From positions 1,426,001 through 1,490,000 of the forward strand of contig JBODTK010000010.1 in the NCBI GenBank assembly GCA_050613775.1: a DNA stretch of 64,000 nucleotides, written 5' to 3'. The stretch comes from Neocallimastix sp. 'constans'. Lineage: Eukaryota. Each line of letters opens with the position of its first letter. The first letter of the stretch is position 1. A model generated the notes under the pieces. That model worked only from the letters and a program-made list of their open reading frames with translations, had not been told where the DNA came from and did not search any database. This document shows positions 17 to 31,403 of this stretch, piece after piece. The translations under genes and the position numbers were made by a program.

Positions 17-724
17 ATGAAAAATAGTTATTCTAATAATTTGCAACAAGTACCTGAATTTGGATTCTTCTCAGGAAACACTAATGACACAGATTTATTT
101 TGTCAATTATGTGAAGATACTTTCTCAACTTATCCCAACTTAGGATTACCAGAAGAAGTAAAAATAAACTTTGTCAAATCTCGTTTGAGAGACGGTGCAA
201 GAAATTGGTATATTGCTACCTATAACGAGAACAATCATCCAGGAACACTAAAGAAATTATTAAGTGATATAAAGAAAACTTTTACGAATGTTGCAAGTAA
301 AAAATTGGCTAAAATCCAGTTAGTAAAATTAAAACATTCGTATGGGAAAATAAATGATTATATAGAAAAGTTTAGAACGTTAACTACTGGTCTGTCTTGG
401 GACGAAGAAGCTTTAGTCTTATTTTTCTATAATGGACTTCACCCAAAGTTCCAAGAAGAAATAGATAAAATGGAAGAATTCCCTACAAAGATTGGTGATA
501 TTTATACTAAGTGCATCTTATTTGAAAATAATATTAAAAGTAAGGACCAATTAAGAAATAATATTGATAATAAAAATTTGAGAAAGAAACATTCAAGCCT
601 ACATGTAAACAATAGCAAGAATTATAATAATAATAATTATTATTATACTAAAAATAAATCTAGCAATAATTATTTTAATAATAATAACAATAATAATAAT
701 CAACATAATAACCAAAAAAACTAA
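17..724 (+). CDS. gag: Retrotransposon Gag (element 1)
   Basis: Retrotrans_gag-like motifs (SRLRDGARNWY, YIEKFRTL, FYNGLHPK); ends at slippery AAAAAAC-TAA. Confidence 0.9.
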   Translation: MKNSYSNNLQQVPEFGFFSGNTNDTDLFCQLCEDTFSTYPNLGLPEEVKINFVKSRLRDGARNWYIATYNENNHPGTLKKLLSDIKKTFTNVASKKLAKIQLVKLKHSYGKINDYIEKFRTLTTGLSWDEEALVLFFYNGLHPKFQEEIDKMEEFPTKIGDIYTKCILFENNIKSKDQLRNNIDNKNLRKKHSSLHVNNSKNYNNNNYYYTKNKSSNNYFNNNNNNNNQHNNQKN

Positions 725-3700
725 TTGATGGGCTTCAAAAGGAGTCCAGAACATCAAAAAATTTAAAAACAATTTATTATAATTTTCCTACACTTGATTC
801 AATCAATGAATCAAATCTCCCATCTACATTCCTTTTATTCAAATCTTATATTCCTATTAAATTCTTAAATAATTTTTCAATTAAAAATGAAAAAATTCAA
901 AAATTAACTTCTGAATCTATGTTAGATTCAGGATCCTTTTGCAATTTTATCACAGAAAAATTAGTAAATAAATTAAAACTAAATATTCAAAAAACAAAAA
1001 ATAAAATCCTAGTTAAAGGTATTTCAGGCAGAACTACCAAATTAGATCAATTTGTTTGGTTAAATTTTCAAATTAAATTTTTTAAAAATAATAAATTTTA
1101 TTTTCAAGATTTTAAAGAAAAATTTTTAATCTCAAATTGTATTCCTACTGGTTTACTTTTTGGAAATCAGTTTATTAGGAAATTCAAAATACATTACAAT
1201 TATAAAAATAATACCTTATATTCTTATTTAAATTATAATTCTTTAAAAGATCATAAAAATAAATCCATAAAATATAAGGGAAATAATTTTTATTTAAACT
1301 CGTTGAAAAGAAAAATTTTTAAAAATAAATTTTTTAAAAGAAAAATAAAAAATAAATTTTATTATAAAAATTTTTCAAAAAATCGATCAAAAAATAATTC
1401 AAAAAATATCTCCAAAAAATTTAATTTAAAAAATTTAAAAAATTTTTCAAAAAATTCAAAGTTTAATAAATATAAAAATTCTATTAATAAAAATTCTAAA
1501 ATTTATGTATATGTAAAATATTTAAATAAATCTAAAAGTAAATTTTCTTCCAAAAAATTTAACAAAAATCATCGAGATTTATATAATAATAAAAAAGAAT
1601 TTAGTTATAATTTTTTAATATATTGTTTTCTTTCAACTAAAGATAAAGTTGAAATTGAAAATGAGGAATCAAAAGTAGAAGAAATTCCTCATCAATATCA
1701 AGATTTAGCAATCGTATTTAGCAAAAAAGAGGCAGATAAATTACCTCCTCACCGTTTAACCGACTGTAAGATTGTTTTAGAAAAAGACGCTACACTCCAT
1801 TACGGCCCAATTTATCCATTAACTGAAGAAGAATCACAAGTTCTTAAGGACTATATAAAAGAAAATTTAGAAAAAGGATTTATTAGACCATCAGAATCTC
1901 CTGCTGGATATCCTGTCCTTTTTCAAAAGAAAAAAGATGGTTCCCTTCGGTTATGTGTAGACTATAAAAAATTAAATGCAGTAACTATAAGAAATTCATA
2001 TCCTCTCCCTCTAATAACAGATATAATAGAAAAAGTAAAGGGAGCAAAATATTTTACGAAATTGGATTTACGTTCTGCTTATAATTTAATAAGAATTAAA
2101 GAAGGTGATGAATATAAAACTGCGTTTAGAACTAAATATGGTCATTATGAATATTTAGTTATGCCGTTTGGATTAAAAAATGCGCCTGCCACTTTCCAAT
2201 CATTTATTAACTCTATTCTTAGACCATACTTGGAAAAATGTGTAATCTTATATTTAGATGATATTTTAATTTATTCCAAAGATCTAGAGGAACATCATAA
2301 TCAAGTCAGAAACGTCCTTCAAACTTTAATTAATAATAATTTATATGCAAAATTAGAAAAATGTGAATTTGACCAGAATAAAGTTGAATTTTTAGGTTAC
2401 ATTTTATCTGGTGATGGTGTATCTACTGACCCAAAGAAAATTAAATATATAGAAGAGTGGCCAAGACCAGAAAATTTAAAAGATGTTCAAAGATTTATTG
2501 GCCTATGTAATTACTATAGAAGATTTGTTAAAGATTTTGCAAAAATTGCAAAACCTTTACATAATTTAACAAGAAAGAATATTAAATTTTTATGGACGAA
2601 TGAATGTGAATATGCTTTTAAGGAATTAAAGAAAAGATTAATTACTTCTCCAATTCTACTTCATCCTGATATTACAAAACCTTTTATAGTAGAATGTGAT
2701 GCAAGTAATTATGCTATTGGTGCTGTTCTATCTCAAAGGGATAAAGATAATAATTTACATCCAGTAGCATATTATTCTAGAAGTTTACTAAACGCCGAAA
2801 TAAATTATACAATTACTGATAAAGAACTACTCGCTATAAGGGATGCTTTTATTGCTTGGAGACATCTACTTCTTGGTGCTAAATACCAAATTACTGTTTA
2901 TACGGATCATAGGAACTTAATATACACATTAGGAGGAAAGGTTGCAAATCAAAGACAACATAGATGGTACCTTTTCTTCCAAGAATATAATTTTATAATA
3001 AAGTATAGGCAGGGAAACAAAAACGGAAAACCTGACAGTCTATCTAGGAGACCTGATTATATTAGAAACAACATTGAAGAAAAACCTGAAAATATTTTAG
3101 ACATTAAAAATGTTAAAGAATTTCCATGTTTTGTTAGCATTGTTAGTGATCTTTTAGAAAGAATTATTGATGCTACTAAGTCTGACGCTACAGCTGAGGA
3201 TATTCGACTTTACTTTAGTCCTCAAAATGTAAAAAATAATATGTCCTATAAGCCCTTCAGAAAAATGGAAAAGTTTAAAATAAAAGACAATTTAATATTT
3301 TATAATAATCTAGTCTATATTCCTGAAGTTCTCCGACTAGAAATTTTAACTAAGTATCATGAAAAGCCTGCTGCCAGTCATTTAGGAATTAGAAGAACTT
3401 TAGAGTTAATAACAAGAAACTTTTGGTGGCCTAAAATAAAAGAAGATGTAACTAAATATGTAAACTCTTGTCAGTCCTGTGCAAGAAACAAAATAAATAG
3501 GCACAGAAAATATGGTCTTCTACAACCTTTGGATACTCCCGAAAGACCTTGGAAATCTATTGAAATAGACTTTTTATGCGGTCTTCCTGATTCTAAAGGA
3601 TATACAGTAATAATGGTAGTTGTCGATCGTTTTTCTAAAATGATCCACTTAATTCCCTTTAAACAAATACCTGATGCAAAACAAACTGCTAAGGCCTTTA

Positions 3701-4615
3701 TGAATAATATCTTTAAACTACATGGTTTACCTCAAGATATTTATACAAACAGAGGATCACAATTTACAAGTGCTCTTTGGAATGAATTTATGCACTTATT
3801 AAAAATTAAAAATAATATAGCTACCACAGATCATCATGAAACCGTCGGACAAGTTGAAAGGTGTAACTCTTTTATTGAACAATATCTTAGGGCTTATTCA
3901 AGAGCTTATTATCATGATGACTGGATAGATTGGATCTACCTTGCAGAATTTGCATATAATAATTCGGTTAACGAATCTACTAAGGAAACTCCTTTCTTTA
4001 TAAATTATGGGTTCCATCCTTCCATGGACGAATTCTTTTTATTACCTCAAATGGATACTAATTTTAAATATATAAAAAATGTAAATACTAGTTTTAATCA
4101 CATTAAAGACGTCTTACTACGTTCCAAAGAATTATATAAAAGGCATGCTGATAAGAAAAGATTAGAACCCCCTGTTTTTAAAGAAGGTGACTTAGTATGG
4201 GTTCAAAGTCCTCCTTCTCTTAATATCGAAGATTATTCTTAATTATCACCTTGTAAGTACGGACCCTATAAAGTACTTGAAGCTTTAGATAATAATAATT
4301 ATAAAATAGATTTAAAAAGATCTCCTTTCCCTAAACACCATCCAATATTCCATATATCTGAGCTCGAGCCTTTCATTCCTACTCCTCCAGAATATAGAAA
4401 AAGAAGATCTCATAATGAATCTATTAAAGATATTATAGAAATAGCAGGATTTAGGACCAATTATAAGAAAAAAATGTTATGAATATCGTGTAAGGTATAA
4501 ATATAAAAATTCATACGATTGGGTTCCTTCAGAAGAAGTTGAAAATAACCCAAGAAATCAAGAGATTTATTTATTATATTTAAAGAATGGAAGGAAGCTT
4601 ACTTCGATAGCTTAT

Positions 4616-4621
<6 letters not shown>
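721..4621 (+). pseudogene. pol: Pol (protease, RT, RNase H, integrase, GPY/F, chromodomain) of element 1, disrupted
   Basis: Frame is open from 721; LDSGS protease, YLDD RT, ECDAS RNase H, HHCC integrase. Premature TAA at 4240-4242 is followed in frame by LSPCKYGPYKV...HPIFHISELEP. An extra A in the run at 4468-4474 shifts the chromodomain-like YEYRVRYKYKNSYDWVPSEEV. Integrase D>N (TNRG, 3748-3750). Confidence 0.88.
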
Positions 4622-4674: not shown

Positions 4675-5240
4675 TGGAAAATTTATTTTTTATTATTAAT
4701 TTTTAACTTTTACTTTATTATTATCTATTTTTTTAGTTAATTTTAATTTTTCAATATTTCTAAAATGAAATTTCAATTTCAAAATTTCAAAATTCAAAAA
4801 TTCAAAAAATATAGCTATATTACACTCTTAACAATCAATTAATAATTCAACATAATCAAAATTTTATAAATTATTATAATTTTCATTTTTTTAAAATTTA
4901 ATGCAACAAATTAAGAAGTTAATTGAAATTAAATTTCAAAATTTCAATTTCAAAAATTCTATATCAAATTCATTCAAAAATGGTACCATTATATTCACAA
5001 CCATCAATTTTATTAACTAAATTTTAATTTTACTAAATTTTAGAAATTTCAAAATTTCAATGAAATGGTCACTTGAAATGGGGTTTTTTATAAAAATTTA
5101 AAAGGACTTAAGTGACCTTCTTCCTTTGAAATTAAAAAATTTTTTAATTTATGAAATTTCAAAATTTTTTTAATAAAAATTTAGACCTCCATATCGTTAC
5201 ACAAAAAACCGTCTTGAATCCGATTTTTATGGGAGGGCGT

Positions 5241-5965
5241 TGTTGAAATTATAACTGAATTGAAATCTCAATTTCAGTTATTTACATTTCAATAATTAAA
5301 AATATTATTTATTTAATTATAAATAATATATATAAATAATATATATATTTAAATAATTAATAATTAATATAAATTCTTGTTTAATATTTAAAGGGTTATC
5401 TTAGGCCTAATAATTCTGAGAATATTAATAAATAAGGTTTATATTAATAATTAATTTCAATGATACATTTGACGTCACGTGTATTTTATTTATATTATGT
5501 TTTTATATATGTTTACAACATATCTATATTAAATTCAATTATTCAAATTAATTATATAATTAAATTTATCCTTATATTTTATTAATATTTATATTACTAT
5601 ATTATTACTATCTTATAATTAAATATTATTATTATGTAACTTACAAAGTATAAAAGAAAGATGTAAAAATCTATCTTTTATGTTCTTTGTAAGGTTATTG
5701 TAAAATTACCTTAATAGTAATATATTATAGATATTTTATTATTAAATAAAATCAATAAATTTAAAATCAAATTAATTTGATAATTCTAATTATCAAAGTT
5801 TATTATAAATAAATTTTCATTAAACTAAACATTTAAATATTTATTATTATTATTATATATCTATATAGTATATTACTATATAGACATATCGACTTAGTGA
5901 ATATTTTTATTAAAACATATTATTTTATTTAAATTTAAATTATAAATTATATCAAAATCTTAACA
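5241..5965 (+). repeat. 3' LTR of element 1
   Basis: TG...CA termini with imperfect inverted ends, preceded by a PPT; the partner LTR is not in the window, so the 3' boundary is taken from the junction with the LTR remnant at 5966. Confidence 0.7.
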
Positions 5966-6019
5966 TTTAGATTTAATTATTATTCGTTATTTTAGTTAAT
6001 AATAAATTTACCTTTTACA
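5966..6019. repeat. Terminal 54-bp remnant of an LTR of the same family as 6025-6581, interrupted by element 1
   Basis: Matches 6528-6581 with 1 mismatch; ends in TTTTACA and is followed by TTTTC. Confidence 0.75.
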
Positions 6020-6024
6020 TTTTC

Positions 6025-6581
6025 TGTAACAGATACATGGTAACTTCAAGCCTATCCAATGATAGTTCTTTGGTTACGTAACGTATCTCTAAACAGCTAG
6101 CAATTTCGGCTAATCAAATAAAATCTTTTGTTACTTTCGTACATTAAATTTTATTATTTTATAAATAATTATATAGTTAAATATTTATTTAAATATATTT
6201 TATTTAGTGATTAGTAAACTAAGTTAAATTAAATTATTTACCAATCATAATATTATTGACATGTATAAATAATAATTGAACTTGTAACTGTAACGCACTA
6301 GCGTTACTATTAACGTAAATTGTTATTATAAATATTAATATTGATAAATAAAAATATAATTATTAAATAAAAAATATTACTCAGTGTAAGCCCAGTAACT
6401 GATAACAAATAGAGTTATAAAGTGCTGCGCTATACTCTAGTGTAAAAAGAAATAATAATTATAGAATTAATTAATTTAGTGTTTATTATTAACAACTCGA
6501 ATAGAGAGGTGTTAAGTTATCTTAGCCTTTAGATTTAATTATTATTCGTTATTTTAGTTAATAATAAACTTACCTTTTACA
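6025..6581. mobile_element. Probable solo LTR (family X)
   Basis: TGTAA...TTACA inverted termini; flanked by TTTTC at 6020-6024 and, once element 2 is removed, TTTTC at 12850-12854. Confidence 0.7.
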
Positions 6582-7381
6582 TTGATACGATATATTTTAA
6601 ATATTCGTATTTACAATAGTTTTGGGCGCTACACTGGGGAATTGTATTAAATTATATATTCTAATAATAATATTAATTATTTTATTTAATTATTTAAAAT
6701 TTTTATTTTAGGATATTTGTTTTGTAATATTTTATTTTTATTTTATTTTATTTTTATTTTATTTTATTTTATTTTATTTTATTTTTATCATATTAATTAA
6801 CTATTAATAATTATAATTTAATTATAATATTCTACAATTAATTACTTAAACAACTAATTTTATTAAAACTAATAACTAAACTACTATCTTAACTAATTAA
6901 AACATTTTTCTTATATTAAATCAACTATTACTAATTAACATATATCAATAATTTATTAACAAAAACATTTTTTTTTTTTATAATATTTTTATATATTTTT
7001 TTTTATAATTATTATCTCTATATTAAATCATAATTGTTATATTTTATATAAACATTAATATAAAAGTTTATATTATAATAATTAAATTTTATACTATAAT
7101 AATATTATTTTATATGATTTATAATTAATATAATTCATCATTTTTATATAATTAATTTTATAATAATATATATTTTACAAACTTTATATAATTAATATAA
7201 TTTAATAATAATTTTAAAATATCATTATTTTTCTTTTCATCTTGTATCAGAACGCCCACGCTTTAGATCAGACTTCGTCCCTTGAAGTCTAAAGAATATT
7301 TGTATGAAATAATAAATTTTAAAATTTATAAGGCATTATTTTTTTTTTTTTTTTTTTGTAATATAATTATATGATTATTAT

Positions 7382-7444
<63 letters not shown>

Positions 7445-7488
7445 GTAGTGATTTATTTTAAACTATTATTATTTTTTAAATATTAATA

Positions 7489-8692
7489 TTAATCAGTGAT
7501 TTCTACAAAACTACTTATATAAGGAATAACATTTTTGAGATGTATATTTCTTTCGGCAACTTCATTAGTAATTGGATCACAAACTGTAACAGTATTAAAT
7601 TGTTGCTTAACTATTTTTAATGGTCCAATAAAATAAGGGTCCAATTTTCTTCTATTAAAATTCCTGATTAATACTAAATCTCCAGGTTTAAATTCACTTC
7701 TTAATCTTTTAATTTGTTTTCTTCTATCTTTCCATAGTTCATTAGCAGTTTCTATATTCCGAATAGCTTCATTAATCCATTTATTATGTGTAATAAATTT
7801 TCTTAAATAATATTCTTCATCAGTTTCATCTTCATGTTTTTGATCAACATTAATTGTAAGTTCGAAAGGTTGCAAATCCCTTCTACCATAAAGTAATTCA
7901 AAACTGCTATACTTTGTTACTTCATTCTTAGCTGTTCTAAGCGCCCATAAAGCACTAGGTAGAATATCATCCCAATCTTTATTATTTTTTCCTAAAAGTC
8001 GCAAATATTTTCCAATTTCTCTATTTCTATTCTCAACTTCTCCATTAGAAGGTGGATGATACGTAGCCACATTATGTACATATACATCATGCAAATCGAG
8101 AAAAGCTTTAGTTTTATCTGAAATAAGTTGTGGGCCATTATCTGTAATTAATAACTCTGGTATTCCATGCCTCGAAAACACATTAATTAAAAATCTTATT
8201 ACATCTTCAGATTCTGTTTTTTCTAATGGTTCAGCTTCCACCCATTTGGTAAGGTAGTCAACTAATATTATGATATATCTATTTCCTCTAGCAGTTGTAT
8301 ATAATGGACCAACTAAATCTAAACCAACTCTTGTGAAAGGCAATCCTGGTGGTGTTGGAATATCTTCAGGGTATTTATTTTGAGGCTGTGGCTTATACAT
8401 TTGACATTTCTTACAACATTTTATAAATATTTTTATATCTTTATTCATTCCTTTCCAAAAGTAATCTCTTTTTAATCTATGATAGGTTTTATAACAACCT
8501 TCATGTCCTATGTTATGTGCTAAATTAATTAATTTCCATTTTTCTTTTTCATCAAAAATTACTCTTCTTAAATTATTATTTTGTTTATAATAAATAATCC
8601 CATCTATTTCTACAAATTTTTGTTTTATATAATTATCAATAAAATCATTTAAAAATTTTTTATCATTATTATTATTTTCATTATTATTTATT

Positions 8693-8760
<68 letters not shown>

Positions 8761-9733
8761 GATATTATTAGAATTGTCATTATTGTTAATATTATTATTA
8801 TAATCATCAATATTAATATTATGATTATTATTATTATTATAATTTAAATTATTTGGATCATCCTCTAAATTCATATTATCTTCATCTCGAATATTTCCAT
8901 TATTATTAATTTCAATAATATCTGGATTTTCTCTAAAATTAACCTTTTTTGTAGAAGAAAGATATTCACCTTCAATTATTTTATTATTATTTAGTTCCTC
9001 ATTATTATTACTATCATTATAATTATCATTATTATTATTTATTTGTTTCATGGCTGGAGTGTGAATAGGAACTGGATTATCTTTGAGATGAAGCCTTTGT
9101 GTTTCTTTATAAGGCCCCTTATATTTTTCTTTATTTTGTTTCCCTTTTCTCTGAGCAGCAAAAACAACTTCATCCTGGAATTCTTCATTGGTATCTCTTA
9201 AATAAACATTATTATTATTATTTTTATTATAATTGTTATTATAATAATCATTTTTTTCATTATCATTATCCTTAATATTATTATTACAATGATTATTACA
9301 ATTATTATAATGATTATTATTATCATCGATATAATAATCATTATTATCATTTCTCATATTAACATTATCACTATTACATTTCATAATACTATTATTATAA
9401 TTATAATTATAGTTATTGTAATTTTTATAATTATTATTATGATTGTAATTATTAGTATCGTTATTATTATAATTATCATTACTATAATCACTATTACTAT
9501 AATTATTATTAAGATTCTTATTGTTATAATTACTATTATTATTATTAATATTAACATTATTATTAATATCACTATTATTATTAATATTACTATTATTATT
9601 ATTAATATAACTATGACTATTATTATTATAATTATTGTTATTAATATTACCTCGATTATTATAATCATCATTATTATAATTATTACCATTATTAACAAAA
9701 TTATAATTATTATTATAACTACTATTATGATTA

Positions 9734-9764
<31 letters not shown>

Positions 9765-10130
9765 AACTATTACTATTATTATCATTATTGTAACGATTAT
9801 TAATGTAATTATTATTATATGTGTAATTATTATTTTTGTTATTTTTATGGTTATTGTTATTATTAAAGTTATTGTTATTATTAGTATTATTGTTATTGTT
9901 ACAATTTGGTTTATTGCAATAATTATTATTACTATTATAATTATCATAAATATTATAATTATTATAATTATTATTATCATTATCATTGGAATTAGTATTA
10001 AAATTATCTTTTCTATTAACTAAATAAATATTCTCATTGTTTTTATAGTTGTTGTCTTTATTCTTGATATCCATTTCTTCATTATTTCCATAATTTTCAT
10101 TTCTTTCATTATTATTAATTAGTAAATTAT

Positions 10131-10173
<43 letters not shown>

Positions 10174-10348
10174 TTTTAATATTCTTATAATATATATTAT
10201 TTTCATTATAATTATTAGGTTCATTAATATTATTATTATTATTATTATAATGATTATGGAAGTTATCATTACAATAATTGTCGTTGTTTATACATAAAAG
10301 GGTGGTTTGTTTACTGGAAGTTGGCCTTCTCCCATAATCTATTTTAAA
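7489..10348 (-). CDS. Asn-rich linker + integrase (element 2 ORF2), probably translated by -1 frameshift from gag
   Basis: AHNIGHEG...CKKC zinc finger, GLDLVGP / ITDNG / GEVENRN DDE triad intact, FIGPL GPY/F-like motif. The -1 frame from the slip site is open up to the poly(A) run at ~10133-10171, where it is one base out of phase with ORF 7489-10269. Confidence 0.8.
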
Positions 10349-11937
10349 TTGCTATCGCTTCTAATATTTTGCTGATGAGGATTTTGATTATCAAAGTACC
10401 TAGGATTACTTTTATTTCTTATTTCCTCCATATTTCTTGCATTGTTGTAGTTATCATTGTTATAGTTGTCATAATTAGTATTATTAGTATTATAATTATT
10501 ATTTCCATAATTACTATTACTATTATAATTATTATTTCTATTATAATTATTATTGTTATTATACATATTATTGTTATTATAATTATTATTGTTATAATTG
10601 CTATTAATATAATTATTATTGCTATAATTGTTATTATTATAATTATTATTGTTATTATAATTATTTTTTCCTCTATTGTTGTTGTTCCTAAAATTATAAT
10701 TACCATTGTTAATATTATTATTATTGGAATTATTATTATAGTTACCAAAATTATTATTATTATTATTATTACTGTTATTGAAATTATTATTATTATTATT
10801 ATTGTTACTGTTATTGAAATTATTATAATTACTATTATTGCTACTATTAATACTACTGTTATAGAAATTATTATAATTATTATTATTGTTATTATAATTA
10901 CTGTTATAATTATTATTACCATATAGAGTATTATAATTATTATTATTATTATTATTAATATTATAATTATTTCCATTATTTCCGTTATTAAACATTCTAT
11001 TTCCATTATTATTATAATTATTTTCATTATAAAATCCAGAATTAAATTTTCCGAAGGTCATTAATTGATTCTGATCCTGACTATAATTAAGAGATTTATT
11101 TTTATTTCTTAAATTTCTTTTGTTACATTCTCTTGCTTTGTGACCTGGTTCGCCACAGAGGTAGCAAGTAAAATTTCTAAATTGATTATTATTATTGTTG
11201 TTATTATTATACCTTGAATTAAATCTTTCTTGACGATATCGACCAGTAGAAAACAGATCAGCATTGCCCACATAATACGTATTTTGTATAGAATTATCTA
11301 AATCCCTATTTCCTTCGGTCAATCCTCTATATAATGGATGTTCTAATAAAGAATTTTGACAATTAGAATTATTTTGGAAGACCATAGAAGTGTTGAGAAA
11401 TTCATTATTTCCTATGGTCCTTTTTTCGGCTTTCTCGGCTCTTACAGCCACTTCAAAAGCATCCGACAAGGTATCACGTTCGGCTAAGAGAATTTGAGAA
11501 TGAACATATATTCTTGATTTTATTGAATTTAAATAATCATCGACTGATATAATCTTCTGATAATCTCTATCTAATCGATGATACAAGGTTAAATAACGGT
11601 AGTTAAAATTCTTTATATTTTCATTTGGTTTTATTTTCAGATTTTTTAAAACTGAGCATTTATCAGCTGGTTTTATATCCATATACTTTTCAATAGCTGA
11701 TTGCACTTCTTTATAGTTTGGATACCTTGTGATATTATTCCGAGTGGTTACTAATGATTTCAAAACGTTCCTCAAGTCAGCCTCCACGGCTATTTTTAGC
11801 CATACAAAAATTCTAGATGAATCTTGGATGTCATGCATTTCCATGACACCCTTAAAATCTTCTATCCATGTGTCTATGTCTTTACCATAGTCACATAGAT
11901 ATGGTAGATCACGTTTTACTTTGGAAGCGTCAACCAT
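10339..11937 (-). CDS. gag: Gag with zinc knuckle and long Asn-rich C-terminus (element 2)
   Basis: CYLCGEPGHKAREC (CX2CX4HX4C); lies just downstream of the PBS. Confidence 0.88.
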   Translation of the reverse strand: MVDASKVKRDLPYLCDYGKDIDTWIEDFKGVMEMHDIQDSSRIFVWLKIAVEADLRNVLKSLVTTRNNITRYPNYKEVQSAIEKYMDIKPADKCSVLKNLKIKPNENIKNFNYRYLTLYHRLDRDYQKIISVDDYLNSIKSRIYVHSQILLAERDTLSDAFEVAVRAEKAEKRTIGNNEFLNTSMVFQNNSNCQNSLLEHPLYRGLTEGNRDLDNSIQNTYYVGNADLFSTGRYRQERFNSRYNNNNNNNNQFRNFTCYLCGEPGHKARECNKRNLRNKNKSLNYSQDQNQLMTFGKFNSGFYNENNYNNNGNRMFNNGNNGNNYNINNNNNNNYNTLYGNNNYNSNYNNNNNNYNNFYNSSINSSNNSNYNNFNNSNNNNNNNNFNNSNNNNNNNFGNYNNNSNNNNINNGNYNFRNNNNRGKNNYNNNNNYNNNNYSNNNYINSNYNNNNYNNNNMYNNNNNYNRNNNYNSNSNYGNNNYNTNNTNYDNYNNDNYNNARNMEEIRNKSNPRYFDNQNPHQQNIRSDSNLK

Positions 11938-12860
11938 TATTAATTAACTACTAAAAAAAGGGAAAAAAAATGAAACAAAACTTATATTTAATACGTAATT
12001 TATTTTCTTATTTAATTCGACTTATCTCTAATATTATTTATTTATTTTTTACTATTATATATATATATATATTTTAATAAAAAAAAAAATAAATTTTTTT
12101 TTTTTTTTTTTTTTTTATAATATTATTATTATTTTCATATAATTTAATAGTGCAGCGCCCGGATTCTCCACCAAAAATATGATACGATATATTTTAAATA
12201 TTCGTATTTACAATAGTTTTGGGCGCTACACTGGGGAATTGTATTAAATTATATATTCTAATAATAATATTAATTATTTTATTTAATTATTTAAAATTTT
12301 TATTTTAGGATATTTGTTTTGTAATATTTTATTTTTATTTTATTTTATTTTTATTTTATTTTATTTTATTTTATTTTATTTTTATCATATTAATTAACTA
12401 TTAATAATTATAATTTAATTATAATATTCTATAATTAATTACTTAAACAACTAATTTTATTAAAACTAATAACTAAACTACTATCTTAACTAATTAAAAC
12501 ATTTTTCTTATATTAAATCAACTATTACTAATTAACATATATCAATAATTTATTAACAAAAACATTTTTTTTTTTTATAATATTTTTATATATTTTTTTT
12601 TATAATTATTATCTCTATATTAAATCATAATTGTTATATTTTATATAAACATTAATATAAAAGTTTATATTATAATAATTAAATTTTATACTATAATAAT
12701 ATTATTTTATATGATTTATAATTAATATAATTCATCATTTTTATATAATTAATTTTATAATAATATATATTTTACAAACTTTATATAATTAATATAATTT
12801 AATAATAATTTTAAAATATCATTATTTTTCTTTTCATCTTGTATCAACATTTTCCAAGCA

Positions 12861-12953
12861 GCTCGTGTAGCCTAGAGGTTTAAGGCGTCGTGCTTATAAG
12901 GGAGTACCTCTTATGCAACGCGAAGATCGCGGGTTCGACCCCCGCCATGAGCA
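12861..12953 (+). tRNA. tRNA-Ile(UAU) with 19-nt intron (12899-12917)
   Basis: Acceptor stem GCTCGTG/CATGAGC+A; anticodon stem TCGTG/CGCGA; anticodon TAT at 12895-12897; intron at the canonical 37/38 position; T-loop GGTTCGA; resembles fungal tRNA-Ile(UAU). Confidence 0.95.
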
Positions 12954-13069: not shown

Positions 13070-14795
13070 TAATAATTATTTTAATTTGTTTTTATTAATA
13101 AAATTTTAAGTAATTATAAAGTTAAAATACATATATATATATATATTTTTTATTATATATATATAATATTAATAAGTATTGTATATAAATATAAGATGCT
13201 TAAATAAATCCATAGTAAATATGTTAAATATTATTATAAAATAAATATATAATTATATCAATACATTTTGTAATAATAATAATAATAAACTTAATAAATT
13301 TATGGGATTTAATACTATTTATGTTATTACCTTCATTTATATCATTAATATTTCATATTTATACCTTATATAAAATATAATAAATATAAAATAAAATAAA
13401 AATAATATAAAATGTATAAATAATTTCAAACTAAATAGAAATACAATTTTACTTATTAATATTCTCAGAATTATTTAATAAGAATTTATATTAATTTTTA
13501 ATCATTTAAGTAAATATTATTTATCAATAATATTAATTATTTAAAATGTAATTAACGGAAATTGAGAATTCGATTCAGTTATATTTTTGATATTTATTGT
13601 TAAAACTTAAAGTTAATTTGGTTTTGACGATTAGGTCAAGATATTAAATTATTTTAATATAAAATTATTATTGGATAATAATTAATTTTTAGGGATTAGA
13701 ATTTTAAAATTAATATTAAATAAATATTAATTAAAAAAATTAAATTAATTAATATATATTACTATAATTTGGCATCTTGACCTAATCTTTATAGCCATAT
13801 TTATTCCAAAGTATAAACATTTATACAATAAAAATTAACTATTAAAACTAAATATATATAAAAAGTTTCAATATTGATACAAAGGGTTTTTTCTCTTAAT
13901 CTAATATAGAATTAAAAGTGATAATAGACTGTATCAAAATAAAAAGAAAAATGTATAAATAATACAAAAATTTAATAATATTTTATTATAACAAATTTGT
14001 TTTATTATAATTTTTTATTTATTATAATTTTATTTACTTATTTACCTATTTATTTATTTAATTATTAATGATTTAATTTTATATTAAATTAATAATAAAA
14101 ATTTAAATATGTTTATTAAATCAAAATTAAATATATATACTAATTTAAATAATATGAAGAATTAATTTTAAATATCAATTATAAAATTTAATAACGAAAG
14201 AATAATTAAATAAAAAAAATATTTACATCTATTTAGTTTTTTTTACAAGAATTATATTAATTTATATTATAAATGATAAAAGAAATAAAAGGAAATAAAA
14301 AGACATAAAAGGAAATAAAAGAAGATCATTTGTTTACAAGTTTAATATTTACAATATTATTTTAAATTTTATTTACAAGTTTATTTAATATAGAAAGTTA
14401 TTGTTAAAATTGTTAAATATCACAGTTATGTGTTTAATTACATTGTACATTATACTACATTATTAAGTGTAAAATATTTTTTTATTCGATAATATAATGC
14501 AGTGTAACGTTAAATGTTACCAATAATGTTAGACTAGAAAATAAATATAAATAACATGTAATAACATATTCTTAAATGAATAAGGTCTTTCTAAATGTAA
14601 AAGCAATAAATAAATAAATAAATAAACACATAATAAAATATAAATATTATTTCTGAATTTAAGTGTTATATTTAACAGATTAAGAGTCTCATGACTCAAT
14701 AATTCATTAACAATTGCTGATATCAAAATCTAATATATTAAATATTAAACATTCATTAAATATTAAAATAAAGAAATATTGGTAGCCACATTAAA

Positions 14796-17700
14796 ATGAC
14801 TAAATCAGATAATTCAACAGTTACGGGGAGTTCTTCAAAAACTTCTTCAAAGACAACAAAAACTACAAATACATCGAGTACAACAATGAATGATACTCTT
14901 GTCGAAGTAGAACCTCCAAATATTCAAACCAACACAATTAATAAATTTCACATTCAAAACTTTAGAATTACAAATGAAAACTTTCACAAATGGCATTCAG
15001 ACTTAAAATTATTCCTTGATTCTGAAGAATTGGGTGATTATATATCAAAGAATATCAAAGATATAAACACAAATAAAAAACATTTAAAATATGACAGTAC
15101 AGTCAGAATTATAATATTAAACAGCCTCGACGAATATACAAAAAGCTTATTAAATAATTGTACAAGTGCCTACTTAATGATAAAGGAATTAAAGGAAAGA
15201 TTTTCAGAAACAGGCCCTTCAAGATTATTTGAAATTGAAATGAAGATAAAAAAGCTAGAAATCGAAAACGATGACTTTAAACTGTATTTAGATAATCTTA
15301 ACTCATTATTTACAGAATACAATAACGAGGCAAAATCTCAAAATAAGCCAGAACTAAGTGAAGAAACAAAAGTCTTGTATTCTTTAGAGGAACTAAATAA
15401 AGTCGACATCGCATATTCATTCACATTTCTATATGTTGAAAAGACATTTAAGGATTTAAAAGAAGACATAACAAAACTAAGTACCATAATTAAGAAAAGT
15501 AAAAGTATTAAACGAGTAGAAATCAAGGAAACATATCAACACGAAGATCAAATTAATAGAGTCCGAAATGGGAAACTCCCATATAATTTTAATAAAGAAG
15601 CAAATTCCAACGAATACTGTCAATATTGCCATAAAAATGGGCACACTACTGATAACTGTTTCTTCAATCCATCGAATTCACCAAATAATAACTATAGAGG
15701 AGAAAAGAAAAATATTAATAATAAGTCAAGAAACAAAATTAAAATTAAAAGAACATCTTTAAACAGGAAAGGTAGTAAAAGAAACTTCAAATCTTATAAC
15801 GTTAATTATGAAGAACAAAACAATTCGAATTCAGATTCAGATCCTTCATTCGACTTCTGCTTCAATATAAAAACTAATTGTGTAAAAGATAATTTTAATA
15901 ACAGTTCAATAACTTCCAGGAACATAAGGGTAAATAAAGTAACTACCGAAATCTTAAAAGAAGAAAATAATATTATGGAAGATAACAATATAGAATCATG
16001 GATCATTGATAGTGGAACAGGGATTAATTTATCTAAGAATATAAAAATACTATCAAACATTGAAGAAGTTGCTAATAGAGGAATTACATACCCAAACGGA
16101 CAATCCGATAGAATATACAAAAAGGGTATGTACAAAGGGATGTATAAAAATAATAATTTTTCTATTGGAGAAGTATTTTATGCTCCAAACATACAAAATA
16201 ATTTAATTTCCACTCATTACCTATGTAAAAAAGGCTTCAAATTAGTAATGGATATGCATAACAATAAAGAAAGACTCCAAATATTTAAAAATAATAAACT
16301 AATTACTACCGTTTATACAAATGATGAAAACCTCTTTACTTTAAATACAAGCTCAATGAAAAATAAAGATTATAATATAAACAATGTCGATTTAAAATTA
16401 TGGCATGCTAGATTAGGCCACTATTACAATCAAAATCTTCAAAAATTTCTAGAAAACAACAACATTAAGGAAGAAAAGAATGATAATATAAATTGTGAAG
16501 ATTGCAAAATAAGTAAACTCAAGAAAAAACCATTCAACAAAACAATCAACAAAAGTTCCTCACCATTACAAGTCGCTCATTCTGATATCGTCGGACCACT
16601 AAAGCCTTCACCATCATTTAGTGGATACAAATATTATATAACATTCATAGATGATTTCAGTAGAAAATGTTGGGTCTACTTACTGAAACACAAATCTGAA
16701 GCAGTACAAAAATTTATTGAGTTTCATAAACTTATGAAAAATACTTGTAATTACAATATAAAAGAAGTAAGATCTGATAACGGTTTAGAATATAACAATT
16801 CTAATTTTATAAATTATCTTAAAAATAATGGAATTATATTCAATCATTCAACACCAGGTAATCCCCAACAAAATGGTCGCGCTGAAAGAATTAATCAAAC
16901 ATTAGATAACTGCGCGAAAACACTACTTAGTGCAGCTAAATTATCACCCATTTTATGGGATGAAGCTATTAAATGTGCATGTATATTGTATAAATTAAAT
17001 CCGCATCAAGGAATTAATTTTAAAATCCCGAACGAGGTATTTTTTAATAAGAAAATTGATATATCTAAACTTAAAGTGTTTGGATGTAAAGTATTTTTCC
17101 TTAATAGATACAAACAAGGAAAATTTGAAAATAATACAAAACCAGGTATTTTCTTAGGATACTCATCAGATTCCCCAGGTTATCGTGTCCTCGACACTAC
17201 TTCAAAAACAATAATTATAGTTCGTGACGCATACTTCAATGAAAGTACTCTAGGTTCACTTGGCACATCATTTTTTCATTCCTCAAATCCTTCAGATAAA
17301 CAAATTGAGGGGGAACAGGACTTACAACATGATTCACAACATCAATTTAGTCAATCTATTTATCATAATGAATTTGAAAGGAATGAAAACAAACCGAATA
17401 AAATTAATATTGAAGATAATATTGATTTAATGGATGAATACAATAATGAAAACATGTTAGACAATAATTCAGAAAACGAAATAATTAATGAAGACATAAT
17501 TAATGAAGACATAATTAATGAAAATAAAATTAATGAAGACATAATCAATGAAAATAAAATTAATGAAGACAAAATTAATGATGATAAAATCAATGAAGAT
17601 AAAATTAACGAAAATCAAAAATTAGCTGAAAAACAAGAAGAAATACTCAAAAATTCAAATATTGAAGATAATATAAAAGTTTCATCAAACGAAAACCATG

Positions 17701-19643
17701 CCAAAATCCTACATGATAATAGTAAAAGTAATGAAAATAACACTATTATTAATAGAAATAACGATAATAACATAAAGGGTATAAAAATCACAAAAAATGA
17801 TTTTTTGAACAAAAATGTGAAAAAAAGTTTTATTAATAAAAATTTGAATAAAAATTTCAAAAATTTCAAATTTAAGAATAAATTAAAAATTTCAAACCTT
17901 AATAATTATAAAAATTTATCTAAATCAAACCTTAATAATTATGAAATTTTAGACCAGAAACTTATTGAGAATAGAATTGAAAGCAATCATAAAATCTGGC
18001 TAATATGAAGATGAATGAAAAATCAAATTTGGAAAATAATAAAATATATGATAATAATAAAATGAATGACTATAATTCAGAGAATGAATCTGAGGACAGT
18101 TTTAGTGATCTGGAACCTTTAGATAAAAGAAAACTAAGAAAGAACAAAGAAAAGAACTTTAAATTTAATATTAAAAGAAATAATAAAATTTTCGATAAAC
18201 TAGTAAACAAAAATGATAAAATTGATAACGAGAAAACAAAAAACTATCGAAAAAGAAAAAGAAAAAATTATCAATTGAATGAAGAAAGAAAAATAAAAGA
18301 TAGAGTATCTACATCAAATAAACCATTTTTTGAAAGGAAAACAGACTAAGATGAAAACGAAAGACGCAAGAGAAATAGAGTCAATAACATTAATACATTA
18401 ATTCCCAAGAATTATGAAGAAGCTATGAATTCAGAAAATGCGGACAAATGGAAAGACGCAATTAACAAAGAATTACAAAATTTATATGGAAATAATGTAA
18501 TGAAAATTGTTGAAAATAAAAATATCCCAAAAGGCATTAAGCCACTCGACGTTAAATGGGTTTTTACCATAAAAGATAATGGTACATATAAAGCTAGATT
18601 GGTCGTCAAAGGTTTTCGACAAATTGAAGGAGTTGATTATAACTGCACCTATTCTCCTACAATAGAAATGGATAGTTTTAGATTAATTATTGCCATTGCA
18701 TCTATATATAAATGGGATTTAAGACAAATCGATATTAAAGCTGCATATTTGAACGCTAAATTAGATGAGAAAATTTATGTACAAATTCCAATCGGTGATA
18801 AAAATTTCAATTGCGGAAAATCAGGATTATTACGAAAGGCTCTCTATGGACTCAAACAAGCTGGAAGACAATGGTTTTACGAAATCTCCGGTTTTCTTAA
18901 GAAAATTAGGTTAATTCAATATAATACAGATAGTTGTTTATTTGGTAAATATAAAAATAATAAATTATGCTTATTACTAACACTCTATGTTGATGATATA
19001 CTAATTGCAGGAGAGAATAAAGAAATTACCAAAGTTGTTTCAAAGATAAAACGTAAATACAAAGTCTCCACAGATAAATCAGCAAACAAAATTATTGGAA
19101 TCAATATAGTTAAAACAAATAAAGGCTACAAAATTAATCAAAAAGATTATATTGAAAAAATGTTAACTAACTACAACATAAACAATACTAAAATAACTAG
19201 AATACCATGTATTAATGCAAAATTAGAAGATAGAGAAAACTCTGAGAAAATTAACAAAACTGATTATAAAAGATTGATTGGATCTCTATTATATGTATCA
19301 ACAAAAACAAGACCTGACATAGCATTTGCAGTAAATCAAGCTGCAAGATTTTCTGAGAATCCAACAAGAGCTGATTTGAATGCAGGTATACAAATACTAA
19401 AATACCTTAAAAGTACAAAGGACTATTCAATTCATTATAACGGAAAGAAAATTTTAAGAGCTTATTGTGATGCAGATTTCGCTGGTGATGAGGTTAAAAG
19501 AAGATCCACTTCAGGATATATTTTTGTATTAGGAAATAGCCCAATATCATGGAAATCAATTACACAGAAAAATATATCCTTATCAACTACAGAAGCCGAA
19601 TACTCAAGCTTAATAGAATGTACCAAACAAGCTATATGGATAA
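14796..19643 (+). pseudogene. Copia gag-pol polyprotein (Gag, PR, IN, RT, start of RNase H)
   Basis: CQYCHKNGHTTDNC knuckle, WIIDSG, LWHARLGH, DIVGP/RSDNG/RAER, YKARLV, LYVDD, YCDADF; frameshift near 17995, in-frame stop at 18347-18349, cut by the nested element at 19644. Confidence 0.92.
17481..17615 (+). repeat. 15-bp coding minisatellite (IINED/KINED/IINEN) in the Copia IN-RT linker
   Basis: About 9 units resembling ATAATTAATGAAGAC. Confidence 0.8.
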
Positions 19644-20277
19644 TGTAATGAATCCGTCAATAAAAAAAACAGATTATAACAATAAAAAAAACACTACAAT
19701 TTAAACAAATAAAATTAAAGTAATTTCTTTTATTAATAAATTCTTTTATTAATTATAAACTTCTTTTATGTTATTAACTGTAAAATAGTTAATAACTAAT
19801 ACATCGATTAAATTAAGAAAAATTACATGTATTTATATTTTTTCTTATTACAATATTAATATATGATGTTATTTAATAATATATATAAAACTATTTATTT
19901 ATAAACAAAAGATTTTTTAATTAATAATTTTTTATTATTTATTAATTTACTAAAACTAAAATTAATTTTTTAAACTCTTTATTTTATTTATTATTTTAAT
20001 ACTTATAATAATTTTAATTATATATTTAATATTGAAAAACTATTTTTATAAATATTAACTATTTAAGATTATTCCTAAATTAATATTTAACTATTTAAAA
20101 CTAAACTAAATTAACTAAACTAATTAAAAAATATTTTCAATTAAAAAAATAATTAAATTTTATTTCAATAAATTTTATATAAAAAAAATAATTCATATAC
20201 ATTAAATAAATTAAATGTACGAAAAATTAAGCTATTTAATGTATTAAAGATTTATTAAATCTTTACAATCTCGCCCT

Positions 20278-23200
20278 TTAAGTCGAGCTCCTGCGAGACA
20301 TACGATTTAGTCCATTTGCTGGTAGATCAATTACAAATGGTTGATATCTATGTCTAACATAGATTTCATTATCACTCAAAGTATTTTCTTCTATGTTTGT
20401 CCTATTCTTTTTGGTTCGACGATAATATTCCTGAATCAATTGTTTGTCATAAATTTGATCTTCATCAATCCAAGTATCCTCATCAGAATCAAGTCCTTTC
20501 CAAGATACAAGAAAACGATTCTTTCCTCTATATTTTCTCATATTAACAATCTTTTCTGGAACTTTATCAAAAGTGTCAGTGGTCAAATTAATATTCTTTC
20601 TTTTTCTTTTATTTCTGTTTTCGAATTCATTTTTATGATAAGGTTCAAGTAATGATACGTGAAAAACAGGATGACAACGCATATTACTTGGGAGTTTAAG
20701 TTTATAAGCAAGTGAACTAATTTTCTCAACAATTTCAAAAGGACCAAGCATTTGATTAGCAAGTTTTTTCTTAACATTTTTAGTAGTACTTCCTTTAAGT
20801 AACCAAACTTTGTTACCAACTTGGAAATCAGGTGAGGGTAATCTTCTTTGATCCGCATATTTTTTGTAAGTTTCTTTAGCTTTATCTAAGTTTTCTTTCA
20901 GAAATTTAATATTTTCGTTAATATCTTTAACTCTTTGATCAGCTCTATGAGGTCTTTCATTAGATGGAATTTCTAGACTAAATCTAGGATTGAATCCATA
21001 GTTAGCAAAAAATGGGGATTGATTGATTGATTGTTGTAAAGTATTGTTATAAGCGCATTCAGCAAAAGGTAATAAATCAACCCAATTTGTTTGTCGTTCA
21101 TTTATATAACAACGAAGATATTGTTCCAATATCGCGTTCACCCTCCCTGTTTGACCATCAGTCTGCGGATGGTTTGAAGTTGAAAACGAATGCTTAATAC
21201 AAAGTAAGTCACATAATCTATTCCAAAATTCAGAGGTGAATTGGGTACCTCTATCAGAAATAATGGAATCAGGGAAACCATGCAATTTAAAAATTGAATT
21301 AATAAAAGCATCAGCGGCAATTGAAGTAGTAGGAAGACAACGAAGGGGGATAAAATGAACCATCTTTGTTAAACGATCAACAACCACCATAATAGTAGTC
21401 ATATCTTTGGATTTTGGCAATTCAACAATGAAATCCATTGAAATATCAGCCCAAGCTCTATTTGGTGTGGATAATGGGGATAACAAACCATACGGCTTAT
21501 GCCTTGGAACTTTAGCACGACAACAAGTTTCACAAGACTTAATAAATTTCTTAACATCATGTCGTAACTTTGGCCACCAAAAGTTTCTGTAAATTAAATC
21601 CGAAGTTTTATTTACACCAAAGTGACCAGCTGTTACAGAATCATAGTGCATTTCTAGAATTCTTGTACGAATATTTTCCGGAACATAGATTAAATCATCA
21701 TAGAGAAGAAATCCTTCATCATCAATTACACATTTATCAATATTTCTAATAGGAGCAGTATCTTTATTATTACTAGAAAGAAAAGTTTTAATTTTGTTAT
21801 ACAATTCATCATCTTTAAGTGAATTTAAAATTGAATTACATAAGCAATCATCAGAAGCATTACAGTTAATAACACGACAAGAAACAGTCTGAGGGTAATT
21901 AAAAAGATGATCACTTCTTCTAGATAAGATATCAGGTTTTCCAGACTTCTTACCAGCACGATAAACTAAATTAAAATCGAAACGAGAGAGAAATTCATAC
22001 CAATGGATTTGACGTTGCGAGAGCATTTCAGGCTTTCTAGGAAAAGTCAAATTTTTATGATCGGTATAAATTGTAAAAGGATGACGAGCACCTTCTAAAT
22101 AGTGACGCCATTCCTCAAGAGCAACTTTAATTGCTAGAAGTTCTTTATCGTAGATTGGATAATTCTTTTCTGATTTGGTTAAGCTAGATGAGATATAAGC
22201 TATTGGGTGTAGTTGACCATCGTATTCCTGAGAAAGAATCGCACCAACAGCAAAATTAGAAGCATCAGTTTCAACAACAAAAGGCTTATTACTATCAGGG
22301 TTTCTCAAAATAGGAGCAGATGTGAACAACTCTTTTAATTTATCAAATGCCTTCTGTTGATCAGGACCCCAGTTAAAGGATACATTTTTTCTTGTAAGTT
22401 TATGCAAAGAACGGGCGATTTTAGCAAAATCTTTAATAAAAATCCTATAATAATTGCATAAACCAATAAAAGATTGAACTTCCTTAACTGTGGTTGGAAC
22501 AGGCCAATCAAGAATGGCTTTAATTTTATTGGAATCAACCTTTAAACCATCTTTCGATAAAATATAACCAAGAAAAACAGTTTCAGAGACATCAAACTCA
22601 CATTTCTCGAGTTTGACATATAAATTATTTTCTAATAGTTTCTTTAAAACTTTCTTGACATGAATATGATGTTCTTCTAAACTTTTTGAATAAATTAAAA
22701 TATCATCAATATACGAAATAACAAAATCATCTAAGTAATCACTAAGAACATCATTTATAAAATGCTGAAAGGTTGCAGGGGCATTTTTTAACCCAAAAGG
22801 CATAACCAAATATTCAAAATGTCCATAACGAGTACGAAATGCTGTCTTATACTCATCACCTTCTTTTATTCTTACTAAGTTATAAGCAGATTTTAAATCC
22901 AACTTAGTAAAGAATTTTGCACCTTTAACTCTATCTAGTAATTCACTAATTAAAGGAAGAGGATAGGAATTACGGATGGTCATCTCATTTAACTTTCTAT
23001 AGTCAACATATAATCTCAATGAACCATCCTTCTTTTTAACAAACAATATAGGTGCTCCAGCAGGAGATGTCGATTTCCTAATGAAACCTTTTTCTAAATT
23101 TTCTTTGATATACTTCTTCAATTCGTCTCTTTCTACTTCTGTTAAAGGATAAATAGGACCATAAAATAAATTTGAATTATCCTTTAATCTTATTTCACAA

Positions 23201-23739
23201 TCATACTCACGATGTGGAGAGAGTATGTCGCAATTTCTTTCATTGAATACTTCTGTATAATTTTTATAAATAGGAGGTATTCCTATAATTTTTTGATTTA
23301 ATTTATTTTCGAAATTACTAATTTTTAAACAATTACAGATACAACACAAATTTTTTACAGAACACTTTTTAGAAATATACTTTTTACTTTCATCTTTATT
23401 TAAATTATCATTATGATTACAATTTTTTGTTACATTATTACATAAAACATCAATTTTACAAATTTTATTTAATTCATCCAAATTAATATTATTACTATCA
23501 CTAAATTCATAAATTTCATCATCATTATCAAACATAAAACTATCATTTACATCACTATCATAATTAATTATACAAAAATTTTTTAAACCATTAAGTTCTT
23601 CATTTTCACTACAAGTTTTAATACGAGTACGACGACCTCTAATCGTAATTTCTTCATCAGAATTCATATCGGAGTCAGATTCAAAGGAATACTTACGCTT
23701 AGGATTAATTTTTTCCTTTGTTAAGGAAAGTTCTTCCAT
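20278..23739 (-). CDS. pol: Pol RT-RNase H-integrase-chromodomain (element 3); integrase catalytic Glu mutated
   Basis: YIDD, ETDAS, SMDF/SDRG, GQTGRVN where E is expected, GPF, chromodomain PEKIVNMRKYRGKNRFLVSWKG...DTW. Confidence 0.92.
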   Translation of the reverse strand: MEELSLTKEKINPKRKYSFESDSDMNSDEEITIRGRRTRIKTCSENEELNGLKNFCIINYDSDVNDSFMFDNDDEIYEFSDSNNINLDELNKICKIDVLCNNVTKNCNHNDNLNKDESKKYISKKCSVKNLCCICNCLKISNFENKLNQKIIGIPPIYKNYTEVFNERNCDILSPHREYDCEIRLKDNSNLFYGPIYPLTEVERDELKKYIKENLEKGFIRKSTSPAGAPILFVKKKDGSLRLYVDYRKLNEMTIRNSYPLPLISELLDRVKGAKFFTKLDLKSAYNLVRIKEGDEYKTAFRTRYGHFEYLVMPFGLKNAPATFQHFINDVLSDYLDDFVISYIDDILIYSKSLEEHHIHVKKVLKKLLENNLYVKLEKCEFDVSETVFLGYILSKDGLKVDSNKIKAILDWPVPTTVKEVQSFIGLCNYYRIFIKDFAKIARSLHKLTRKNVSFNWGPDQQKAFDKLKELFTSAPILRNPDSNKPFVVETDASNFAVGAILSQEYDGQLHPIAYISSSLTKSEKNYPIYDKELLAIKVALEEWRHYLEGARHPFTIYTDHKNLTFPRKPEMLSQRQIHWYEFLSRFDFNLVYRAGKKSGKPDILSRRSDHLFNYPQTVSCRVINCNASDDCLCNSILNSLKDDELYNKIKTFLSSNNKDTAPIRNIDKCVIDDEGFLLYDDLIYVPENIRTRILEMHYDSVTAGHFGVNKTSDLIYRNFWWPKLRHDVKKFIKSCETCCRAKVPRHKPYGLLSPLSTPNRAWADISMDFIVELPKSKDMTTIMVVVDRLTKMVHFIPLRCLPTTSIAADAFINSIFKLHGFPDSIISDRGTQFTSEFWNRLCDLLCIKHSFSTSNHPQTDGQTGRVNAILEQYLRCYINERQTNWVDLLPFAECAYNNTLQQSINQSPFFANYGFNPRFSLEIPSNERPHRADQRVKDINENIKFLKENLDKAKETYKKYADQRRLPSPDFQVGNKVWLLKGSTTKNVKKKLANQMLGPFEIVEKISSLAYKLKLPSNMRCHPVFHVSLLEPYHKNEFENRNKRKRKNINLTTDTFDKVPEKIVNMRKYRGKNRFLVSWKGLDSDEDTWIDEDQIYDKQLIQEYYRRTKKNRTNIEENTLSDNEIYVRHRYQPFVIDLPANGLNRMSRRSST

Positions 23740-25138: not shown

Positions 25139-25521
25139 TTGATCCTCAAGATTTAAATTTTGAAATATAAGATCCAATTCTTCCAACTTGATTAATTTAT
25201 TTGTATACTTAGATTTCAACTAATATTTTATTTATTTTCTGACCTGCTTATTTATTAAGGTATTTACTTATATAATTTATTTTATTTATTCTAAATTATT
25301 TTCGTTCTAGTAATTAATTATTATTATATTAATATTATATTATTATTCATAAAGTCGTCAGCACGATATCCAATTGTAATGGTGTGCGACGAGTAAACGA
25401 AACAAATATAATATAATATAATAATATTAACTAATATGTTATTAAAGAGCCACAGTAGAAATAAAACACCTTGAAGATAAAGCGCAAAAGACAACACAGT
25501 AACGATAAACACGGTATGGAT

Positions 25522-25775
25522 CAAACACAGTAGAAACCAAACACAGTAGAAACCAAAAACAGTAGAAACCAAACACAGTAGAAACCAAAAACAGTAGAAA
25601 CCAAAAACAGTAGAAACCAAAAACAGTAGAAACCAAAAACAGTAGAAACCAAAAACAGTAGAAACCAAACACAGTAGAAACCAAAAACAGTAGAAACCAA
25701 ACACAGTAGAAACCAAACACAGTAGAAACCAAACACAGTAGAAACCAAACACAGTAGAAACCAAACACAGTAGAA
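25522..25775. repeat. 16-bp tandem repeat CAAA(C/A)ACAGTAGAAAC, ~16 copies, in the 5' leader of element 3
   Basis: Read directly; no spacers between units. Confidence 0.95.
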
Positions 25776-26477: not shown

Positions 26478-26746
26478 GAAGATTAGTTAATGAAATATTT
26501 AACAAAAACATTAGAATTAATATTAGAATAGATAATAAACCATGTAAGGATATAGCTGAAAATGAAAACCAAAAGGGACGATGCAAATATATGGATATAA
26601 AATACAAATATGTTCAAGATGAAATTATGAAAAATGAAATTAAATTAACACTCATTGGTTCTAACTCAATGATGGCAGATCCATTAACCAAAAGTATTTC
26701 TGGACCCAAGCTTAAATATTTCTCAGACTTCATCATGGAAATGTAG
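26478..26746 (+). pseudogene. C-terminal RNase H portion of the Copia pol
   Basis: Removing element 3 restores AIWIRRLVNE...IDNKP...KYMDIKYKYVQD...MADPLTK...stop TAG at 26744-26746. Confidence 0.92.
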
Positions 26747-27579: not shown

Positions 27580-27672
27580 GCTCGTGTAGCCTAGAGGTTT
27601 AAGGCGTCGTGCTTATAAGGGAGTACCTCTTATGCAACGCGAAGATCGCGGGTTCGACCCCCGCCATGAGCA
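27580..27672 (+). tRNA. tRNA-Ile(UAU) with intron, copy 2
   Basis: Identical to 12861-12953. Confidence 0.95.

Positions 27673-31359: not shown

Positions 31360-31403
<44 letters not shown>

Follow-up and report, generated by a model that had tools for sequence, protein, structure and literature searches.

The analysed window, 64,000 nucleotides of Neocallimastix sp. 'constans' (contig JBODTK010000010.1, positions 1,426,001 to 1,490,000 of the forward strand), has a G+C content of 18.8% and is made up for the most part of nested retrotransposons. Near its left end, three long terminal repeat (LTR) insertions, hereafter E1, LTR-X (or X) and element 2, lie within 8 bp of one another, at -14 to -7 of the mature 5' end of one tRNA-Ile(UAU) gene. 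The presence of this gene (12861-12953, forward strand), which a preliminary description drawn from the sequence alone had placed at the stack, is borne out by a match of 55 bits to the Rfam tRNA model, with a UAU anticodon and a 20-nt intron; ARAGORN, with introns allowed, miscalls it as tRNA-Ala. It is the first of three identical copies belonging to a 2.1-kb tandem unit, the two paralogs (27580-27672 and 29682-29774, forward strand) having starts free of any LTR. CAAGCA directly precedes the gene in all three copies, while the five bases before it (-11 to -7) read TTTTC in the first copy and TATTT in the other two. Sequence comparison within the window found no counterpart, to the left of the stack, of the 545 bp upstream of the paralogs, which is expected if the stack displaced this flank past the window edge.

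The junctions of the stack are real. Element 2 is bordered on both sides by ACAT (6579-6582 and 12847-12850), the left copy being made up of the last three bases of X and a further T. Deleting element 2 together with one ACAT leaves TTTTC on both sides of X. The left TTTTC (6020-6024) separates E1 from X, and the right one (12850-12854) overlaps the right ACAT by one base, so that the two right-hand target copies together occupy 12847-12854 of the forward strand, ACAT at -14 to -11 and TTTTC at -11 to -7 from the mature tRNA. Both duplications are exact, as the preliminary description had it. E1 and X have in common their 5-bp target and their orientation, which is that of the tRNA gene; element 2, the last to insert, is oriented the opposite way, and its 4-bp duplication takes in the last three bases of X. 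The element nearest to the gene is also the youngest, the LTRs of element 2 being identical at 666 of 667 positions. The earlier claim that a single family X had inserted twice is not confirmed: one 5-bp target did take two insertions, but the left member proved to be a different LTR, which has only 63 bp in common with X (5957-6019 vs. 6519-6581, 95% identity); further left, nothing aligns beyond AT-rich noise. Whatever the true extent of the left LTR, one target was used by two LTRs that are related without being the same, and a single site at the expected RNA polymerase III (Pol III) transcription start was used repeatedly.

The simplest view of the left member is that it belongs to a full-length chromovirus, E1, as its 3' LTR, a reading that follows from the gag-pol region upstream of it and from the polypurine tract GGGAGGGCGT at 5230-5240, directly followed by TGTTG. 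All E1 features lie on the forward strand. The window starts inside the gag region (1-720, read by eye, directly before the pol frame), and the pol frame (712-4620) encodes protease, reverse transcriptase (RT), RNase H, integrase, an SH3 domain and a putative diverged chromodomain. It is interrupted by an in-frame stop (4240-4242) and by a frameshift in an A-run near 4470, both of which are missing from a protein that is otherwise 99% identical (P0121). The order protease-RT-RNase H-integrase, the purine tract and the TG...CA LTR place E1 among the Ty3/gypsy LTR retrotransposons, and the Ty3 Gag-Pol is the best match of its pol among solved structures (expectation value, E, 2e-135). The 3' LTR would extend over 779 bp (5241-6019), its final 63 bp being those related to the X end. 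The alternative, a shorter E1 LTR at 5241-5520 followed by a separate 385-bp LTR at 5635-6019, is not favoured; the left flank of such a separate LTR, TATTA, does not match TTTTC. A stretch of the E1 LTR (5246-5470) recurs in inverted form, with 72% identity, in the spacer of the tRNA unit (13587-13370 and 28320-28202), possibly as the remnant of an old LTR.

As for the C-terminus of the E1 integrase, its last 75 residues are conserved across nine proteins and are predicted to fold with a mean confidence (pLDDT, predicted local distance difference test) of 85.8. Chromodomains are the top fold matches, with middling Z-scores of up to 7.1 (6.8 for the yeast Chd1 chromodomain, 1.9 Å over 53 residues), and the Atlas gives 0.92 for this region to Chromo clusters; Foldseek returned nothing for the model at E ≤ 0.001. 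At the profile level, Pfam Chromo matches none of eight close E1-clade proteins and both of two more distant controls, and a chromodomain profile compared with the E1 clade matches weakly (65%), two of nine proteins exceeding the best of 900 shuffles. Since the profile match is weak, it is on the predicted fold that E1 appears to be a chromovirus whose integrase ends in a diverged chromodomain, with the first and third positions of the aromatic cage replaced, as read by eye.

The second member, X (6025-6581, forward strand), is a solo LTR of 557 bp (TGTAA...TTACA) with its U5 end facing the tRNA. It contains an 11-nt self-primer candidate (6300-6310, forward strand), exactly complementary to what comes after X ends in L003, a contig from another assembly that carries a relative of element 2, and in the sequencing runs X1 and X5; the 11-mer occurs in 4 of 20000 shuffles of X and was not found in the E1 LTR. 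The runs were compared over 6470-6660 only, and 4 of the 21 runs listed gave 1612, 150, 2 and 188 records, many of them X-end variants. One contig of run X5 is identical to the X end and continues with ATAGTAACGCT, the consensus of 14 records after the X end in run X1 opens in the same way, and L003 has ATAGTAACGCT too. X accordingly looks like a high-copy LTR whose layout for self-priming is that of Tf1 and Tj1 (PMC4600332). The doubt raised in the preliminary description, that X might never be found bordering an internal domain or a target duplication, has fallen away, X elsewhere proving to be a genuine LTR with a primer site after it. The self-primer site also sets the orientation of X as that of the tRNA; a placement of X on the minus strand, read from L003, was overturned by it. 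X was reduced to a solo LTR later, after its insertion.

Element 2 (6583-12846, minus strand) is bounded by LTRs of 667 bp that differ by one mismatch, the 3' LTR at 6583-7249, next to a purine tract at 7250-7265, and the 5' LTR at 12180-12846, towards the tRNA. Between them, on the same strand, lie a gag frame with a zinc knuckle (10339-11943), a second open frame (7489-10287) in which an Asn-rich region and a pol N-terminus are fused to the integrase, and a tRNA-type primer-binding site, TGGTGGAGAATCCGGGC (12155-12179), preceded by a 6-nt spacer. We take the primer to be tRNA-Ala, as a guess; the same motif is present in two related loci (L005 and L007). The integrase is intact, with H2C2, D-D-E and GPY/F-like motifs, and no protease, RT or RNase H was found in element 2, which cannot count as autonomous: its second frame aligns to the start of pol in the relatives L001 and L002 and then to the integrase, the middle being gone. 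Element 2 is a recent non-autonomous derivative, and both it and its family look recently active. Its frames (7489-11943) contain very long Asn-rich stretches free of stops, and those of L001 and L002 have 11-23% Asn.

Relatives of element 2 were collected as 42 loci, after 17 distant ones (L037-L040, L042-L053, L061) and two duplicates had been set aside. An RT match is present in 29 of them, the remaining 13 beginning too near the integrase to hold one. The integrase tree (43 rows, three short loci dropped, built without named reference elements) groups element 2 with L001-L003, L005, L006, L017, L055 and L060 (support 96/91), in a subclade apart from E3, another element of the window, and L033, and widely separated from the chromoviruses. 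Of the 120 integrase matches listed, the only fungal ones that carry a name come from Neocallimastix (53%) and from an Orpinomyces gene model (58%), in keeping with an anaerobic gut fungus as the host. Within the subclade, L003 has a different primer site and 66% integrase identity, and an X-like U5 end stands immediately next to the end of its 3' LTR, 1 bp off the position of element 2, so that the pairing of an element 2 relative with X recurs. L003 also holds, at 5923-6251, a pair of X-like U5 ends with a spacing of 268 bp that enclose a self-priming site and a short leader; this may be an element with an internal deletion.

Concerning flanks and further copies, ARAGORN at its default score found no tRNA gene in the 42 loci, none of which includes the flank beyond the 5' LTR, i.e. 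the tRNA-facing side; when the score was relaxed and long introns were permitted, all its calls in retroelement loci were implausible. An exact DNA pattern of the X end had no match in metagenome contigs, and in viral contigs neither exact patterns (the LTR end of element 2, the X end with the primer site, an X-internal motif) nor protein scans revealed a match or a relative. Fungal-type retrotransposon contigs (L054-L060) were observed inside five prokaryotic genome bins (G001-G005), probably through binning contamination. The E1-like contigs from such bins stop inside their LTRs, and in the five bins no X copy was found beyond L003 and L056, the other matches being short and AT-rich. The junction of L035 is ambiguous.

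Other elements of the window lie away from the stack. A Copia element (14411-27034) with 267-bp LTRs is flanked by an AAAAT duplication and stops 545 bp short of the second tRNA-Ile gene, on its upstream side, a single case at a distance inside the range known for Ty1. Nested in it, away from the tRNA, is a chromovirus (19644-26472) with a canonical chromodomain, 624-bp LTRs differing by one mismatch, a GATAA duplication and an 11-nt self-primer, i.e. the same primer layout as X. Further right, a 5.26-kb unit is repeated three times in tandem (30782-47015), the third unit holding a frame of 168 codons that begins like a signal peptide and has no Pfam match. E3 (48960-54991), a gag-pol relative of element 2 with 50% integrase identity, lies between duplicated genes with TLDc domains, where it is inserted in an (ATT)n tract.

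Several known elements provide a framework for the stack. Tj1 of Schizosaccharomyces japonicus is a self-primed Ty3/gypsy element that makes a 5-bp duplication 1-10 bp upstream of the Pol III start, in the orientation of the gene (PMC4600332). X resembles it in its Ty3/gypsy type, duplication length, self-priming site and orientation, and E1 in orientation and target, whereas Tj1 belongs to another phylum, is documented by mapped new insertions and not by one locus, and differs from E1 in that the latter keeps a diverged chromodomain. Ty3 of Saccharomyces cerevisiae and Tyl3 and Tyl6 of Yarrowia also make 5-bp duplications at tRNA starts (PMC5911963, PMC5014426), but the gap to the mature tRNA is 15-17 bp for Ty3-type ends vs. 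11 bp for the end of X, Tyl3 is primed by tRNA-Met and X by itself, and the integrase of element 2 is distant from that of Ty3 (E 4e-11, weaker than its match to foamy-virus integrase). At 11 and 14 bp from the mature tRNA, the insertions observed here are inside the ranges given for DGLT-A (13-33 bp in Dictyostelium discoideum, 10-11 and 10-19 bp for two D. purpureum families) and for Tca8 (6-30 bp). DGLT-A has no chromodomain, a tRNA-type primer and, in most listed families, positions 10-34 bp upstream in either orientation (PMC5006619, PMC6101501), compared with 14 bp and reverse orientation for element 2; it differs in having one open reading frame and in contacting TFIIIC through RNase H and the integrase N-terminus, while in element 2 there are two frames and RNase H is lacking. 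Finally, the dictyostelid chromovirus Skipper-2 has a diverged chromodomain with the same replaced cage pattern as E1 and lies beside tRNA genes (PMC5006619), but downstream of them, E1 being at the tRNA start.

We consider it somewhat better than an even bet (about 55%) that targeting of the Pol III start site explains the three Ty3/gypsy insertions, made by two unrelated integrase lineages. This interpretation is favoured because the distances are within known ranges, because X has three traits of Tj1 and because two unrelated integrases agree on the site; the youngest element also lies nearest the gene, as distance-based targeting predicts. All three insertions fall within ~5-30 bp upstream of the mature tRNA, at one locus. 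Integration complexes would be guided by Pol III initiation factors bound at the tRNA start, the latter presumably at CAA (-6 to -4, common to all three tRNA copies), possibly by tethering to TFIIIB or TFIIIC. As the tRNA promoter is internal, the start site would survive each insertion and the next element would land between the previous one and the gene, giving the order E1, X and element 2. Element 2 would have been mobilised by an autonomous relative, and the diverged chromodomain of E1 might, at a guess, play a part in targeting. The preliminary proposal of two tRNA-targeting LTR families holds insofar as a site at the expected start was used repeatedly, but the families are three and the locus is one. 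More broadly, and tentatively, anaerobic gut fungi may carry two independently evolved LTR lineages that target Pol III starts and compete for the same few bases: self-priming chromoviruses, with a retooled chromodomain and in the direction of the tRNA, and a subclade primed by tRNA, lacking a chromodomain and making 4-bp duplications, next to sister subclades without targeting.

Several observations weigh against targeting. The stack is seen at one tRNA locus only, and the 5' LTR of E1 and its left target copy lie beyond the window edge, so that this copy is unseen. X ends are very numerous (the 1612 records, both LTR ends pooled, come from run X1 alone), a number that strict targeting could hardly account for unless tRNA genes abound as well. 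No tRNA is visible at the L003 junction, where the contig ends inside the 5' LTR and the tRNA-facing side is for that reason unseen. Outside the subclade of element 2, E3 is inserted in its (ATT)n tract and a Copia RT gene harbours L033. The closer relative L004 is flanked by AT-rich DNA in which there is no B box. The consensus behind the X end is AT-rich and without tRNA-like letters in runs X6 (12 contigs, agreement 0.47) and X11 (11 contigs, 0.50), a weak test since primer-site junctions of 5' LTRs are mixed with flanks and 20 of 124 loose-end rows are listed; it counts mildly against, as strict same-direction targeting might leave G+C-rich letters.

The most serious rival, which we regard as rather unlikely, is a hotspot formed by the LTR end or by favourable local sequence: a first element would have landed near the tRNA by chance, and later ones would have been drawn to its resident U5 end or to the sequence around it. 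One lucky first hit would suffice to give an identical stack of LTR, target and LTR; the L003 junction, where an element 2 relative adjoins an X-like U5 end and no tRNA is visible, fits it equally well, as do, within the weakness of that test, the loose ends behind X without tRNA signal. P elements, with a motif preference only, also insert doubly at one target (10.1101/158386). Such a hotspot nevertheless requires that two unrelated integrases, with 5-bp and 4-bp duplications, prefer one LTR end, and that the first hit fell by luck inside the narrow range known for Pol III-directed elements. We know of no gypsy element that targets an LTR terminus with 1-bp precision, which counts against it.

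It is improbable, though the Tj1-like traits do sit in E1 and X, that only one lineage, most likely these self-priming chromoviruses, is directed to Pol III and that element 2 came as a passenger into open or AT-rich DNA beside residents. The junctions of its wider clade, in a microsatellite, in a Copia RT gene and in an AT-rich flank, would suit a passenger, but two insertions of its subclade lie within 1 bp of an X-type end, in the window and in L003, which would be rare for one. The least probable explanation is that the elements became nested by chance, in a region dense in transposons, or that the assembly is in error. The window is indeed mostly nested elements, and no contig piece bridging the X/element 2 junction with 31 bases on each side was found in the four runs, among the matches listed (26 of 1952), a gap that says little since short-read contigs break at repeats. 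Against both stand the two exact duplications, which overlap as sequential insertion predicts; and against chance nesting, of the window's 6 insertions whose junctions can be read, 3 lie within 20 bp upstream of a tRNA gene, for which P is ~1e-7 under uniform insertion, a post hoc value that assumes independent insertions.

Targeting of tRNA starts as such is a known kind of behaviour; it is plausibly new for this phylum, and two lineages joined at one site are unusual. In a literature search mostly of open-access papers and at the level of search listings, no report of it was found for gut or other early-diverging fungi. Such targeting has been described in ascomycete yeasts and dictyostelids and is explained as avoidance of damage in compact genomes (PMC5006619, PMC5911963). 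If Pol III targeting is the correct interpretation, the comparison of targeted with untargeted sister subclades would make its determinant mappable, and the family of element 2, site-directed and recently active, might serve as an integration tool in gut fungi, which are hard to engineer. The stack would then be a case in an early-diverging, transposon-rich fungus, with two unrelated integrases at one site; it would add independent origins of this behaviour and weaken the compact-genome explanation, targeting having arisen in large, repeat-rich genomes as well as in compact ones.

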